From IMG/VR virus record IMGVR_UViG_3300044732_002213: DNA of 14,520 nt; one strand, 5' to 3'. The translations under genes were made by a program, and so were the position numbers. Positions 4,597 through 10,694 of this stretch are shown here, piece by piece. The notes beneath the pieces were generated by a model. That model was not told where the DNA came from and ran no database searches. It saw only the letters and a list, made by a program, of their open reading frames with translations. The stretch's first letter is position 1. Every line of letters begins with the position of its first letter. Origin of the DNA: a virus.

Positions 4597-5199
4597 ATGA
4601 TCAAAATTGTTGCACCACTGCCGCCAAGGTTGTATGTGGCATGTTCTGGTGGCGTAGACAGTATGGCAGCCTTGGATTTCCTCAAGAGGCGCCATGATGT
4701 CACAGTTGTCTACTTCAATCATCAAACTTTCTATGGGCACATGTGTGAACAAAATCTCACAGCCTATTGTGCCAGGCGGGATATTCCCTTGTTGCTGGGC
4801 AAGCTGGAAGCCAACAAACCCAAGCATGAAAGCCAGGAAGAATTTTGGCGCAACCAGAGAATTTCCTGGTTCCACCAGTTGCCAGGCACTGTGGTCACAG
4901 CTCATCACCTGGATGACTGCATGGAAACCTACTTGTTCAATTGCCTGCATGGCAAACATCACACCATTGCCTATCAAAATGGTAATATTGTGAGACCCTT
5001 TCTCACAACCACCAAGAGTCAGTTGCAGAGTTGGTGTGAGAAGAATCAGGTGCCTTGGTGGGGTGATCCCAGCAACATGGACACCAGGTTCATGCGCAAC
5101 CATATCCGTCACAACATCATGCCACATGCCCTGATTGTAAATCCTGGTTTGGCCAAGGTTGTCAAGCGGATTGTTGTTGACGCAATGTCCAACACATAG
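4597..5199 (+). CDS. tilS: tRNA(Ile)-lysidine synthetase-like PP-loop ATP pyrophosphatase, catalytic domain only, 200 aa
   Basis: SGGVDS PP-loop at the N-terminus. HHLDDCMETYLFNCLHGK matches the TilS HxDDxxET motif. The C-terminal block IVRPFL..TKSQLQSWCEKNQVPWWGDPSNMDTRFMRNHIRHNIMP parallels TilS (RPLL..TRGEL..WA...L.W.EDESN.D..Y.RN.LR..V.P). It lacks the long TilS C-terminal tRNA-binding domains. Confidence 0.75.
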   Translation: MIKIVAPLPPRLYVACSGGVDSMAALDFLKRRHDVTVVYFNHQTFYGHMCEQNLTAYCARRDIPLLLGKLEANKPKHESQEEFWRNQRISWFHQLPGTVVTAHHLDDCMETYLFNCLHGKHHTIAYQNGNIVRPFLTTTKSQLQSWCEKNQVPWWGDPSNMDTRFMRNHIRHNIMPHALIVNPGLAKVVKRIVVDAMSNT

Positions 5200-5239
5200 T
5201 AAATTCACATTATTCCAATCCAACAAGGAGCCAACCAAC

Positions 5240-7729
5240 ATGGCAGACGATTATAGCAAAAGCCGAGAAAAGGAACTGGTGCTTCCTCCCGGTGTCTACG
5301 CTTATGTGCTAGACCAAACCAAAGGTCCCATCAGCGTCTATTGCGGTCCCTACAAGAGCAGCCTCAGCAACACTGATCAGCTGGTTACCTACAACAGCCG
5401 AACCAAGAGATTTGACGAAGCCAATACCCAGCAGAGTGCCACACAGAGCAACGTGATGGCCAGCAAGGGTTACTATGTGGTGCTGGAAAATCCAGCCAAG
5501 AATGGCCGCCAGCCTGAACCTGGCAAAAGTGAGGCCATGCCCATTGATGCACTGTTGATTGGTCAGACTGAAAACCATCCTGGTCCCTGGAGTTATCCAC
5601 TGTGGCCTGGCCAGGTGGCAACGGTGATCAAGGGTCATCAGCTGCGTAGCAACCAGTATCTGCTTGTGAGCATTGTGGATGATGAAGCTGCCAAGGAAAA
5701 CTGGGACAAGAGTGTGGTCAAGAGTGTCACAGGCGGATCTTCCAGTGAAGATCACAATTTCCTGGGCATCAAGAAAGATGATCTCACAACTGGCCAGATG
5801 ATCATCATCAAGGGCACAGAGATCAGCTTTTATATTCCACCCACAGGTGTGGAAGTGGTCAAGGATGCAAATGATCGCTATGTGCGTGATGCTGTCACAC
5901 TAGAGCGCCTGGAATATGCTGTGCTCCTGGATGAGGGCGGCAACAAGGAATATGTGCGTGGACCAGCAGTGGTGTTTCCCAGCCCCACTCAGGAATTCTT
6001 CCTCAAGGAGGATGCTCAGGGCCGTGTGCAGCGCAAATTCCGTGCATATGAACTGCAACCCACCAATGGTATTCACATCAAGGTGATTGCAGATTATGTG
6101 GATGAAACTGGGTCACACGTTGCTGGTGATGAAATGTTCATCACAGGCAAGGACATGCCCATCTACTATCCTCGTGAAGAACATGCCATCATCAAGTATG
6201 GCAATCAGGAGAAAACCTACAGCGTGGCCATTCCCAGCGGTGAAGGACGCTATGTGCTAAACCGCAGCACTGGTGAGATCAAGCTGGTGACTGGCCCTGC
6301 CATGTTCCTGCCCAATCCCATCCAGGAAGTTGTAGTGCGTCGTGTGCTCAGCACCAGCGAATGTGATCTTTACTTCCCAGGCAATCGCCGGGTTAGGGAA
6401 GTCAACGACATGCTGCGCAACAGCCGAGAAAGTGTGGGCGGTGGCGCCAGTGTGGTACAGGATGCCAGCTATGCTGTGGCTGCTGCTGCTCCTGTGAGCC
6501 GTCGCATGACAGCCACAGACAATGCCTTTGCTGATGCTCTGGATCGTGGCACCACCTACCAGCCACCACGCACCATCACCCTGGACACCAAGTTTGATGG
6601 TGCTGTGATGATCAACGTGTGGAGTGGCTATGCTGTGCAGATCGTCAACAGCCAGGGGGATCGTCGCACTGTGGTGGGTCCTCAGAGCGTGCTCCTGGCA
6701 TATGATGAATACCTGGAAAAGCTGAGCCTCAGCACAGGCACGCCCAAGAGCGATGCCAACTGCCTGCTCACGCCCTACCTGAGGTATATCAGCAATCCTG
6801 TTAGCGATGTGATTGATCTTCGCACACATGACCTGGTGAATGTGCGAGTGCAGGTCAAGTACCTGGTACGTTTTGATGAGAGCCGCAAGGACAATTGGTT
6901 CAGCATTGACAACTATGTACAATACATGGTGGATCACCTGCGCAGCCTGATCGGCAATGAAGTTCGCAACATCAGTGTGGGTGATTTTTACACAGATGCT
7001 GCCAACATTCTCCGAGATTGTGTGCTGGGCAAGAAACCAGAAACTGGCAGCCGCCCACTCAAGAACTTTGTGGAAAACGGCATGACAGTGTATGACCTGG
7101 AAGTAATCAGTGTCACAGTGCTGGATCGCAACATCGACAGCATGCTGAGCAACAGCAGGCAGGAGACCCTGCAGGACAGGATCGAGCTGGCCAGGGCCAC
7201 ACACAGGCTGGAGATTGTGTCAGGCATGGAAAAGGCCAAGCAAGTTGAAGCTGAAGCCAAGAGCACCACACAGTTGTGCATCCTGGAACTGCAAAGCCAG
7301 GAGATCAACCAAAAGCACCAGAACATGAAAACTTCTGTGGCTAATGAGGGTGAGATTGTTCAAGCCCGCAAGCAGAACGAACATGCTGCTGCACAGGTAG
7401 ACCAGGCTGTGGCTGACATCCACCGCCTGATCGAAGAACAGGATCTCAAACTGGGGCAAACCATCAAGGATCAGGAAGCTCAGCGTGAAGTGGGTCTGGA
7501 ACATGGCCTTGCAGAAGCTCAGAAGATTCGCATGGAAGCCATCCAGGGCAAGCTGGTGGAAGCACTCACTGCCATGGCACAGACTGGTCAGCTGGAAGCC
7601 ATTGCGCAGCACCTGGCACCACTCAGCATTGTGCAGGGCGAAAGCCTCAGTGGCACACTCAACAAGCTGCTCACTGGCACTCCGCTGGAAGGCATGCTGA
7701 GGAATGTTGCACAGTTGGGTATCCGCTAA
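5240..7729 (+). CDS. Major vault protein (MVP) homologue, 829 aa: N-terminal vault repeat domains, then an SPFH-like shoulder and a long coiled-coil cap-helix
   Basis: AAGGAG lies 9 nt before the ATG at 5240 (the ORF track starts at an upstream in-frame codon at 5159). N-terminus LVLPPGVYAYVLDQTKGPISVYCGPYKS aligns with MVP repeat 1 ([28 protein letters not shown]). Further MVP-like blocks: YPLWPGQVA (MVP FPLYPGEVL) and GDEMFITGKDMPIYYPREEHAII (MVP [24 protein letters not shown]). The shoulder region ISVTVLDRNIDSMLSNSRQETLQDRIELA matches MVP [27 protein letters not shown]. This is followed by about 150 aa of heptad-rich helix ending LEAIAQHLAPLSIV... (MVP TEAIGPSTIRDLAV). Length is close to eukaryotic MVP (about 850-900 aa). 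Confidence 0.75.
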   Translation: MADDYSKSREKELVLPPGVYAYVLDQTKGPISVYCGPYKSSLSNTDQLVTYNSRTKRFDEANTQQSATQSNVMASKGYYVVLENPAKNGRQPEPGKSEAMPIDALLIGQTENHPGPWSYPLWPGQVATVIKGHQLRSNQYLLVSIVDDEAAKENWDKSVVKSVTGGSSSEDHNFLGIKKDDLTTGQMIIIKGTEISFYIPPTGVEVVKDANDRYVRDAVTLERLEYAVLLDEGGNKEYVRGPAVVFPSPTQEFFLKEDAQGRVQRKFRAYELQPTNGIHIKVIADYVDETGSHVAGDEMFITGKDMPIYYPREEHAIIKYGNQEKTYSVAIPSGEGRYVLNRSTGEIKLVTGPAMFLPNPIQEVVVRRVLSTSECDLYFPGNRRVREVNDMLRNSRESVGGGASVVQDASYAVAAAAPVSRRMTATDNAFADALDRGTTYQPPRTITLDTKFDGAVMINVWSGYAVQIVNSQGDRRTVVGPQSVLLAYDEYLEKLSLSTGTPKSDANCLLTPYLRYISNPVSDVIDLRTHDLVNVRVQVKYLVRFDESRKDNWFSIDNYVQYMVDHLRSLIGNEVRNISVGDFYTDAANILRDCVLGKKPETGSRPLKNFVENGMTVYDLEVISVTVLDRNIDSMLSNSRQETLQDRIELARATHRLEIVSGMEKAKQVEAEAKSTTQLCILELQSQEINQKHQNMKTSVANEGEIVQARKQNEHAAAQVDQAVADIHRLIEEQDLKLGQTIKDQEAQREVGLEHGLAEAQKIRMEAIQGKLVEALTAMAQTGQLEAIAQHLAPLSIVQGESLSGTLNKLLTGTPLEGMLRNVAQLGIR

Positions 7730-7756
7730 CAAGCAGATCCAATACTACTTGGGAAT

Positions 7757-10055: not shown

Positions 10056-10265
10056 TTAGTCAGACAGCCAGGAGAGCAAAAATGACGTTTGTTCTTCTTG
10101 CGTTTCAAAAACAAACAGCATGCCTCCACGATCACGATAGGCATTGGCTCGGTAATTACACCAGAGCCAACTACCAGCATCATTCCAGTCTCTAAATCCG
10201 TTGTGAGTCCACACTTGTTGCCATTTATGAATTTGTTCTTTTGACAGAGTCAAGGTCACTTGCAT
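10056..10265 (-). CDS. Hypothetical Trp-rich small protein, 69 aa, immediately downstream of the PTH2 gene
   Basis: ATG at 10265-10263, 3 nt after the PTH2 stop, suggesting translational coupling. No motif recognised. Confidence 0.45.
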   Translation of the reverse strand: MQVTLTLSKEQIHKWQQVWTHNGFRDWNDAGSWLWCNYRANAYRDRGGMLFVFETQEEQTSFLLSWLSD

Positions 10266-10268
10266 GTG

Positions 10269-10694
10269 TTACCATGCACAATTGTTCATGAGAGGCAGGT
10301 CGCTGAGGATAGGTGAAAGATCGTCCTTGCTGCCCAGAACCCAGGCACACACATCCACTGCCATCAAACAGAACCCACGCTCTGTGGTGCTGGGATAGGT
10401 GGGGTCACGCCACACACCTGCACTGCAACCCTGATCTCGCAGTTTTTCAATTTCTGCCACACACCACTTCATGGTTTCTTCATCGCAACTCAACACGATG
10501 GTGGTGCCCACACCCTCACATTCCTGTTCCCAGGTGTTGAGCACATCTTTTTGTGCCCTGGTGCCATGCTTGCGTACATGGTAGGTCATTCTTGTTCCTG
10601 CATGATGAGCATGTGCTGCTGCCTTGCCTGCGCCCAGGCTGGCCAGATCATTTCTCATCAAAACATATGCGTAAACGGGTGAATTCTTTTTCAT
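10269..10694 (-). CDS. pth2: Peptidyl-tRNA hydrolase, PTH2 (archaeal/eukaryotic) family, 141 aa
   Basis: YAYVLMRNDLASLGAGKAAAHAHHA aligns with the PTH2 signature VVRxDLxMGKGKxAAQCSHAA. IVLSCDEETM matches the PTH2 block VVLKAPDEETL. Size is typical of PTH2 (115-140 aa). ATG at 10694; the ORF track extends to an upstream TTG at 10736. Confidence 0.65.
   Translation of the reverse strand: MKKNSPVYAYVLMRNDLASLGAGKAAAHAHHAGTRMTYHVRKHGTRAQKDVLNTWEQECEGVGTTIVLSCDEETMKWCVAEIEKLRDQGCSAGVWRDPTYPSTTERGFCLMAVDVCAWVLGSKDDLSPILSDLPLMNNCAW

Follow-up and report, generated by a model that had tools for sequence, protein, structure and literature searches.

A tRNA-shaped insert in the anticodon of a phage tRNA(CAU) gene near a minimal TilS gene, and related inserts in its relatives

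TilS, Pth-type hydrolases, tRNAs, and a variety of metabolic enzymes are familiar components of large-phage genomes, and the tRNA regions of large phages (T4 and T5) are hot spots for accessory genes and homing endonucleases. To our knowledge, there is no route in bacteria or phages for removing tRNA introns as short as those described below, and the only earlier report of such introns, from Lak megaphages, left them unexplained. In that report, the introns in Lak megaphage tRNA genes were called "enigmatic," and one of them (Thr) was described as tRNA-like (Devoto et al. 2019; PMC6784885; preprint 10.1101/356790). Here, we describe a tRNA(CAU) gene that is interrupted inside its anticodon, together with its surroundings, in a 14,520-nucleotide (nt) stretch of the IMG/VR record IMGVR_UViG_3300044732_002213 (the window, meaning the whole stretch of DNA that was analysed), where the interval of interest spans positions 4597-10694. 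A preliminary description of this interval had proposed a cluster of tRNA-targeted genes, which is ordinary in itself. The part worth following up is the tRNA-shaped anticodon insert; a compact, covarying insert of this kind, with regular boundaries, interrupts several tRNA genes in the clade to which the phage belongs. The reading that we favour, with somewhat better than even confidence, is that the interval forms part of the dispersed tRNA-gene island of a large phage and carries independent cargo genes, and that the sole true functional pair in it is TilS_N and the interrupted tRNA(CAU), the insert of which would be excised.

When the window was compared by megablast with 50,697 deposited phage records, no match was found. 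Identical copies of its TilS protein are present on many metagenomic contigs (98 index blocks), of which the longest near-identical ones, here labelled L081-L086, are 99.6-100% identical over the entire window. Graded relatives (L087-L099 and L164-L170) were retrieved via homologues of the GNAT-like and Pth2 proteins of the window. The contigs of these relatives reach ~180 kb, and the best phage matches of a major-vault-protein (MVP)-like gene in the window come from uncultured phages of 462-735 kb; therefore, the window derives from a large phage.

No tRNA is called in the window by ARAGORN in default mode, and Rfam reports no tRNA within 4597-10694 and none at 8600-8900, even at E<=10. In intron mode, ARAGORN reports a tRNA with a 48-nt intron in the anticodon loop at 8687-8811. 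When 8640-8815 was inspected by eye, a D arm, a T arm (CUCCG UUCGAAC CGGAG), and an acceptor stem (GGGCCUC/GGGGCCU) with ACCA after it were recognized; between the two strands of the anticodon stem (CUCGC/GCGAG) lie 55 nt, where 7 are normal. The gene is built as follows.

8643-8671, plus strand: sigma-70-like promoter TTGACA-17-TAATAT before the interrupted tRNA gene (10/12 matches)
8687-8721, plus strand: exon 1 of tRNA(CAU), as called by ARAGORN in intron mode: acceptor 5' strand, D arm, anticodon-stem 5' strand, and loop bases C32 U33 C34
8722-8769, plus strand: 48-nt intervening sequence between C34 and A35
8770-8811, plus strand: exon 2 of tRNA(CAU): A35 U36 A37 A38, anticodon-stem 3' strand, variable loop, T arm, acceptor 3' strand, A73, and encoded CCA

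Two stretches are conserved beside the anticodon stem, a 5' CUC and a 3' AUAA, and joined they form CUCAUAA, a CAU anticodon loop. ARAGORN forces the intron to positions 37/38, which makes the window tRNA a Pro(CGG) and its L082 variant, with 89% identity, an Arg(CCG). This implausible disagreement led to rejection of the placement; the CUC|AUAA junction is preferred because it yields CAU in all variants. The spliced tRNA is closest to the tRNA(CAU)s that adjoin TilS in other phages, and with C4-G69/C5-G68 and A73 it has tRNA-Ile2-like features, so that it is probably a tRNA-Ile2. The window type is represented by four sequences (window, L082, L167, and L169) that align cleanly, with 97.7% of cells paired on the full structure. 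Among them, seven pairs are changed on both sides, five in the outer cloverleaf and two in the closing stem of the insert, and the compensatory changes of the exons lie in the acceptor, anticodon, and T stems. None of 500 shuffles reached seven two-sided changes, and slid controls gave 0-3. The interrupted gene keeps its promoter, its pairing, and junctions that exactly restore the loop.

The insert itself opens with a 7-nt closing strand, GGGGGAU, followed by a GG-containing linker, GUAGGUUACACAA, and a 5-bp T-like arm (UGAGG UUCAACU CCUCA). Its 3' part consists of a 7-nt return strand, AUCCCCA, and a 4-nt tail, AACU. In this fold, it resembles the acceptor/T-arm top half of a tRNA with an overhang of NCCA length, and the two compensatory pairs of its closing stem are seen in the comparison of GGGGAU/AUCCCC with GAAGAU/AUCUUC. 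No spacer lies between the 5' junction and the closing stem, whereas at the other end the 4-nt tail separates this stem from the 3' junction.

Inserts of the same build are found in other tRNA genes of the clade. The homologous tRNA(CAU) of L089 and L090 carries a second type, which is 51 nt long and sits after A35 instead of C34; a tRNA-Leu(UAA) at L081:1133-1272, ~500 bp upstream of window position 1, has a 51-nt insert, and a tRNA-Arg(UCU) at L098:19944-20068(-) has one of 48 nt. The plan is common to all eight distinct sequences (8/8), which are 48-51 nt in size and come from three tRNA species: (i) a 6-7-nt strand starts exactly at the 5' junction; (ii) a linker of 13-19 nt contains AGGU or a related GG motif; (iii) an arm of 4-6 bp, usually 5 bp, carries a T-loop-like 7-nt loop (UUCAACU, UUCGAUU, UGCGAAU, UUCAAUC, or UUCAAUU); (iv) the return strand comes right after the T-like arm; and (v) a 4-nt single-stranded tail reaches to the 3' junction. 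Removing everything from the closing stem through the 4-nt tail gives CUCAUAA in 6/6 tRNA(CAU) variants, CUUAAAA in the Leu tRNA, and CUUCUAA in the Arg tRNA. In the six tRNA(CAU) variants, the insert follows C34 in four and A35 in two, and each removal restores a 7-nt loop. Upstream of the window, L081 also has normal tRNA-Leu(CAA) and tRNA-Gln(UUG) genes at L081:149-318. Given these tRNA genes ahead of the window, the whole ~16 kb is therefore regarded as a dispersed tRNA island.

An exact-pattern scan of IMG/VR for the insert core returned no match, and a descriptor scan of ~3 Mb of other phage loci found no such element outside the clade. When 146 unrelated phage loci were run through ARAGORN in intron mode, nearly all calls were artefacts that fused two adjacent tRNAs. 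A MAFFT alignment of all eight inserts misaligns two of the types; therefore, no covariance model was built. A hammerhead-type self-cleaving motif, considered by eye, was rejected, as the CUGANGA/GAAA core is absent and the candidate is not conserved in L082.

Archaeal and eukaryal bulge-helix-bulge introns and bacterial group I tRNA introns likewise lie in the anticodon loop, and their removal must likewise restore a 7-nt loop. Neither class fits the inserts of this clade: no 3-4-3 bulge-helix-bulge motif can be drawn, and the junctions are at 34/35 or 35/36, not at 37/38; with 48-51 nt against a ribozyme core of at least ~200 nt, and with no Rfam match, a group I intron was also rejected. 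We propose instead that the insert would be excised from the transcript and the exons rejoined before the tRNA is modified and used. Most likely, in our view, the tRNA-like shape of the insert would serve as a recognition signal for tRNA end-processing enzymes. RNase P recognizes exactly the acceptor/T-arm half of a tRNA and cleaves where the acceptor stem begins on its 5' side, which makes it the obvious candidate for a cut at the 5' edge of the closing stem. After excision, an RNA ligase would reseal the anticodon loop, a reaction of the kind carried out by T4 Rnl1, which seals anticodon loops.

TilS turns C34 into lysidine, so that the tRNA is charged with isoleucine and decodes AUA instead of AUG. 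The gene in the window encodes the catalytic part of this enzyme.

4597-5199, plus strand: TilS_N, catalytic PP-loop domain of tRNA(Ile)-lysidine synthetase, 200 amino acids (aa) (Pfam PF01171, 1.7e-30)

The preliminary description had read this protein as a minimal TilS-like catalytic domain, and the profile searches agree: TIGR02432 (lysidine_TilS_N) scores 122.5 bits against a cutoff of 93.6. The PP-loop motif SGGVDS lies at residues 17-22 (the SGGxDS of the N-type ATP-pyrophosphatase domain), and the protein aligns with residues ~20-220 of the solved TilS structures 1wy5, 3a2k, and 1ni5, which are enzymes of 317-464 aa. With its 200 aa, it has no C-terminal tRNA-binding domains (56 bits to the full-length equivalog NF007942, with a cutoff of 606).

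Across 80 TilS_N loci, tRNA(CAU) is the commonest tRNA species, with 53 occurrences versus 35 for the next, and in 22/80 loci it lies <=100 nt from TilS_N on the same strand. At least one tRNA is present in 60/63 distinct TilS_N loci, and TilS_N is <=100 nt from a tRNA in 30% of cases versus 11% for other open reading frames (ORFs). An uninterrupted tRNA(CAU) with a long variable arm directly follows TilS_N in L093 and L098, and in L169 an interrupted tRNA(CAU), the sole tRNA(CAU) beside TilS_N there, begins 9 nt downstream of it. These frequencies and abutments support a functional tie between TilS and a phage tRNA(CAU), and the preliminary description is upheld to the extent that the interval does serve tRNA and translation functions in a large phage. 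TilS_N and tRNA(CAU) are the one conserved pairing in the interval and a recurrent two-gene phage unit, a conclusion that is sound but of a known kind, with lysidine formation at C34 as the predicted reaction. Such a unit would give the short phage TilS a clear role, namely, providing AUA decoding. In the window, the TilS_N/tRNA(CAU) pair is separated by the MVP-like gene and a mobile HNH endonuclease insertion (HNH-B).

The tRNA(CAU) genes beside TilS_N at L093:7955-8040, at L098:15113-15200(-), and in L028 and L033 have a class II shape, 86-88 nt in length with a long variable arm and a 3-bp D stem, which is unusual for tRNA-Ile2 or tRNA-Met.

A TilS N-domain of similar size (~200 aa) is encoded by the Pseudomonas jumbo phages PA5oct and MIJ3, with 43% identity and an annotation as tRNA(Ile)-lysidine synthetase (PMC6892783); unlike in the window clade and many metagenomic phages, where the TilS and tRNA(CAU) genes adjoin, no annotated tRNA gene lies within 2.5 kb of the TilS gene of PA5oct. 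Phage-encoded tRNA(CAU) with tRNA-Ile2 signatures is common and known from T4-like phages (PMC1524935). The window differs from both in that the pair is split by insertions and the tRNA is interrupted inside its anticodon.

The remaining features of the window are listed below.

350-1096, minus strand: HNH endonuclease A (HNH-A)
1196-1223: promoter of tRNA-like RNA "A"
1240-1326, plus strand: promoter-driven tRNA-like RNA "A," beside HNH-A
1958-3361: saccharopine-dehydrogenase/homospermidine-synthase-like gene, 467 aa
5237-7729, plus strand: MVP-like gene, 830 aa, between TilS_N and tRNA(CAU) (Pfam MVP_shoulder 3.7e-19, Vault_3 3.8e-07)
7757-7782: strong terminator after the MVP-like gene
8050-8538, minus strand: HNH homing endonuclease B (HNH-B), a paralogue of HNH-A (phrog_655 1.2e-42; Pfam HNH)
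8864-9318 (8864-9103 and 9061-9318), plus strand: two small overlapping ORFs of 79 and 85 aa between the tRNA gene and the GNAT-fold gene, conserved in the clade
9386-9826, plus strand: minimal malonyl-CoA-decarboxylase (MCD)-like GNAT-fold protein, 146 aa (GNAT fold, predicted local distance difference test score [pLDDT] 96.6)
9827-9856: promoter of the truncated tRNA(CUA)
9889-9923, plus strand: truncated amber-suppressor tRNA(CUA), first 35 nt only
10056-10265, minus strand: 69-aa ORF downstream of the Pth2 gene
10269-10694, minus strand: Pth2-type peptidyl-tRNA hydrolase, 141 aa, with its own promoter at 10729-10702(-)
11249-11506: helix-turn-helix (HTH) gene (HTH_39 in relatives)
12170-14503, minus strand: repeat-rich tail fibre gene

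The MVP-like gene (~2.5 kb) and the HNH-B gene (~0.5 kb) occupy much of the 6-kb interval and had both been left out of the preliminary description. Homologues of the MVP-like gene in the 462-735 kb uncultured phages are 37% identical; it is absent from L093, L094, and L164, and only end fragments are found in L090 and L091. The gene is accessory cargo inserted between TilS_N and tRNA(CAU). HNH-B is missing in the otherwise 99%-identical L082 and L096, where window positions 7786-8681 are replaced by ~180 bp. In these two contigs, the identity of the flank, including the tRNA gene, falls from 99% to 89%, as expected of homing-associated co-conversion. T4 SegB and the T5 F-Tfl enzymes are free-standing homing endonucleases of phage tRNA regions. 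The HNH genes of the window are like them in lying beside tRNA genes, in their presence or absence between near-identical genomes, and in the drop of flank identity; they differ in being two paralogues with a shared hairpin before their start codons. The hairpin is GC rich and lies just upstream of both HNH start codons, at ~1120-1153 and ~8563-8598 (GGGACAGCCCGGAGC.../GGGACAGCCTGGGGC...), and each of the two genes is divergent from a promoter-driven tRNA-like gene.

Several other features have homologues across the clade. The saccharopine-dehydrogenase-like gene is kept directly upstream of TilS_N clade-wide (~69% identity in L093 and L094). The two small ORFs have tblastn matches in L087-L092 and L096, and neither has a match in Pfam, NCBIfam, PHROG, or PADLOC. 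The tail fibre gene contains many tandem repeats of ~51 nt (17 aa; NTAVG...SL..NTTG), the copy number of which varies among otherwise identical contigs.

Between the GNAT-fold gene and the Pth2 gene lies the tRNA(CUA) fragment. It matches nt 1-35 of the intact L096 tRNA(CUA) at 97%, and homology stops after anticodon base U35; in the window, the 3' half of the tRNA plus a 190-aa gene is replaced, and a search for the 3' half elsewhere in the window did not find it. An intact tRNA(CUA) lies directly after the GNAT-like gene in L087-L090, L092, L093, L096-L099, L164, L165, L167, L169, and L170. Thus, of the two tRNA genes that had been counted in the interval, at least one of them with a promoter, one is the promoter-driven interrupted tRNA(CAU) and the other is a 35-nt remnant. 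The segment after the fragment (9924-10268) contains a 7-bp hairpin (GGTCTCT GGAAGC AGAGACC). L093 has split release-factor-like ORFs (PCRF/RF-1), which together with the conserved tRNA(CUA) offer hints of amber read-through or recoding in the clade. TAG is the stop codon of four window genes.

The GNAT fold of the 146-aa protein was read correctly at the outset; its assignment as an acetyltransferase was not borne out. Its sole Pfam match, over profile positions 54-140 of 253, is the C-terminal domain of MCD; in structure it is closest to MCD and to the decarboxylase domains of SxtA, CurA, and GphF; and it keeps the TLSP and FHxxNGA motifs, which are the decarboxylase Ser/His motifs. No acetyltransferase or toxin family match was found in Pfam, NCBIfam, PHROGs, or PADLOC, and no similarity to TacT or AtaT. 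It is a minimal MCD-type enzyme that, judging from its fold and motifs, probably acts on an acyl-CoA. Unlike full-length MCD, it has no N-terminal helical domain and is only 146 aa long; and in contrast to MCD, CurA, GphF, and SxtA, its phage family, with >575 relatives in IMG/VR plus Pelagibacter phage Mosig, is often found beside tRNA genes. The neighbours of the gene vary among relatives. In the window, it has no antitoxin-like neighbour of the RHH/DUF1778 type, and the ORFs at 8864-9103, 9061-9318, and 10056-10265 are without a family match.

The Pth2 protein has the clear alpha/beta fold of its family, in line with the original assignment; it scores 29.2 bits to Pfam PF01981 (cutoff 23), and the curated NCBIfam equivalogs are not reached (20.2 and 18.8 bits versus cutoffs of 126 and 82). 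Archaeal Pth2 has a conserved catalytic Lys and Asp. In the phage family, the Lys of a GK motif is invariant in A2 and >=90% conserved in A3, and the Asp of a DPxYP motif is invariant; that these correspond to the catalytic residues is suggested by alignment with Bit1. The identity to archaeal and eukaryotic Pth2 (PF01981; Pyrococcus horikoshii PH1539 and human Bit1) is only ~22%, and the protein belongs to the phage family phrog_1866, which includes huge phages and Caulobacter, Brevundimonas, and Erythrobacter phages. This homologue probably recycles tRNA from peptidyl-tRNA as a general support of phage translation.

Whether these genes form a module was examined through their order and their co-occurrence. 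In the clade, the order is saccharopine dehydrogenase - TilS_N ... GNAT-like - tRNA(CUA) ... Pth2 (opposite strand) - HTH_39, and it holds down to ~50% protein identity. Unrelated genes of the clade, namely those for ferritin, dCMP deaminase, superoxide dismutase (SOD), AdoMet decarboxylase, and tail fibres, are equally collinear, and intervening genes are freely swapped. Because the whole region is collinear, synteny within the clade says little on function. Profile searches around each gene family gave the following counts of nearby genes.

80 TilS-seeded loci: GNAT-like 3, Pth2 1, MVP 0
66 Pth2-seeded loci: TilS 2, GNAT-like 2, MVP 0 (all in near relatives only)
80 GNAT-like-seeded loci: TilS 7, Pth2 1, MVP 0

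Synteny is kept inside the clade, and outside it the genes are almost never together. Cultured phages have one of the three genes each and never all: TilS in Pseudomonas jumbo phages, Pth2 in Caulobacter, Brevundimonas, and Erythrobacter phages, and the MCD-like gene in Pelagibacter phage. In the window, TilS_N, the GNAT-like gene, and Pth2 are in separate transcription units, the last on the other strand. With co-occurrence near zero outside the clade and separate transcription units, a conserved three-gene module is not supported. Overall, what was first observed in the interval is partly confirmed, and its interpretation as a module is mostly not supported.

Several points weigh against the favoured reading of a tRNA island with one functional pair and an excised insert. 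The whole analysis is computational. As for excision, the 4-nt tail does not match the known RNase Z cut site, the first pair of the closing stem is a G·A mismatch in most insert variants, and no splicing endonuclease or RNA ligase was identified, the relatives being readable to ±10 kb only, so that no ligase search was possible. As for the pair, E. coli TilS uses its C-terminal domains in acceptor-stem recognition, which are the very domains that TilS_N lacks, and its substrate is thus inferred from adjacency to tRNA(CAU) alone; AUA accounts for 24/204 Ile codons in the window ORFs. As for independent cargo, TilS_N, the GNAT-like gene, and Pth2 lie within 4-6 kb of one another throughout the clade, the GNAT-like gene is followed by tRNA(CUA) in all relatives of the clade, and members of the GNAT-like family are <=400 bp from a tRNA in 73% of cases versus 36% for other ORFs (loci with tRNAs, L171-L250). 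The tRNA species beside these genes vary (Thr, Val, Gly, Leu, and CUA), and the location of the MCD-like family near tRNAs could be either that of hot-spot cargo or a hint of a tRNA-linked role.

A more far-reaching version, which we put forward only tentatively, is that phage tRNA introns include a separate class made up of the 48-51-nt inserts, in which a built-in acceptor/T-arm mimic is the signal and the Lak introns are longer members. The cell's or the phage's own tRNA end-processing enzymes would then make the cuts, with RNase P acting on the 5' side and a second activity 4 nt past the 3' edge, and a ligase would complete splicing. As the insert sits right beside C34, it might also gate the modification of this base by TilS. 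If true, the bacterial world would have a protein-dependent route of tRNA splicing that bears no relation to the group I and bulge-helix-bulge pathways.

The interrupted tRNA(CAU) could instead be a dead gene, hit by a selfish mini-element of the anticodon loop that is never removed, with TilS_N acting on host tRNA-Ile2 or another phage tRNA. No bacterial machinery for 48-nt tRNA introns is known, the neighbouring tRNA(CUA) gene is plainly broken at its anticodon, and mobile HNH endonucleases adjoin the tRNA genes, all of which would suit such a decay. It is nevertheless unlikely: compensatory changes keep the exon stems paired in the variants that bear the insert, the gene still has its encoded CCA and its strong promoter, removal of each insert yields a loop of exactly 7 nt and an anticodon that makes sense, from two insertion points in the case of CAU, and the insert-bearing copy of L169 is the only tRNA(CAU) beside TilS_N.

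A comparably doubtful proposal is that the genes, mechanistically independent, are held together by selection as a "translation-support island" co-regulated early in infection. Their order is conserved in the clade, and in unrelated phages TilS_N clearly and the GNAT-like gene moderately tend toward tRNA regions, as does Pth2 to a small extent (28% versus 23%). Against this, the collinearity takes in ferritin, dCMP deaminase, SOD, and tail fibres, so that order alone is no signal; the intervening genes are freely swapped, and the tRNA regions of large phages such as T4 and T5 attract accessory genes and homing endonucleases in any case.

Even less probable, we think, is that the 125-nt RNA acts unspliced, the outer tRNA being a scaffold and the product being the inner mini-tRNA or RNase P-released halves, for example, as a decoy for anticodon nucleases or tRNA-binding host factors. 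The insert is indeed a well-formed mimic of the tRNA top half, with a T-loop and a GG motif, and a free-standing tRNA-like RNA with a non-canonical body, RNA "A," is present at 1240-1326. However, the flanks CUC...AUAA, CUCA...UAA, CUUA...AAA, and CUUC...UAA rebuild canonical loops, which a scaffold would not need, and the association with TilS points to a decoding tRNA.

RNA "A" has a 7-bp acceptor stem, a T arm (GUGGG UUCGAAU CCUGC), a GCCA end, and a hairpin loop UUUCUAC containing UCU, which corresponds to Arg AGA, the commonest Arg codon in the window. It has no canonical D arm; a hairpin that resembles one lies 3' of the anticodon-like arm instead of 5' of it. It scores 26.3 bits to the Rfam tRNA family (gathering score 29) and is called by ARAGORN in neither default nor intron mode. 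As an interrupted tRNA it was rejected: deleting every 3-49-nt segment in turn gave no detectable tRNA. RNA "A" may be related to the tRNA-shaped inserts, as a free-standing form, or may be a counterpart of the small stable RNAs of the T4 tRNA region.

Finally, the suggestion of a single counter-defence module against tRNA-targeting toxins, made up of the tRNAs together with TilS, Pth2, and the GNAT protein, with GNAT and Pth2 paired like TacT/AtaT and Pth, is very improbable: the three folds are real, their genes lie close together across the clade, and the region is rich in tRNA genes, but the GNAT-fold protein is MCD-like with its decarboxylase motifs kept, Pth2 is near in only 1/80 loci, and, with separate promoters on both strands, no antitoxin-like partner, and no PADLOC match to a defence or anti-defence family in the window (only a weak PP-loop cross-match to QueC and weak HNH matches, E 5e-4 and 4e-3), the toxin/antidote logic is therefore unsupported.

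Returning to the excised insert of the favoured reading, its nearest precedent is found in the Lak megaphages, which belong to another lineage and differ in GC content and host. Like the inserts of the window clade, Lak introns are short, protein-free, and located in the anticodon loops of phage tRNA genes. The Lak paper itself describes a tRNA-like intron for tRNA-Thr only (PMC6784885). In our own reading of its Table S6, two further Lak introns have a 7-bp stem plus a T-arm before the 3' junction: the Tyr intron, with CUACAUA...AAUUGG UUCGAAU CCAAUU UAUGUAG, and the Phe intron, with CUCUAUA...AAUGG UUCGAUU CCAUU UAUAGAG. Lak introns are 79-93 nt long, with a ~25-nt 5' leader before the tRNA-like part and a tail of 2-4 nt, whereas the 48-51-nt inserts of the window clade have nothing but the tRNA-like part, which begins right at the 5' junction, and they interrupt the anticodon itself (34/35 or 35/36). 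By this comparison, the inserts of the window clade are a compact variant of the unexplained Lak kind, and their boundary rule (closing stem, T-arm, return strand, and 4-nt tail) makes the Lak intron puzzle experimentally approachable.

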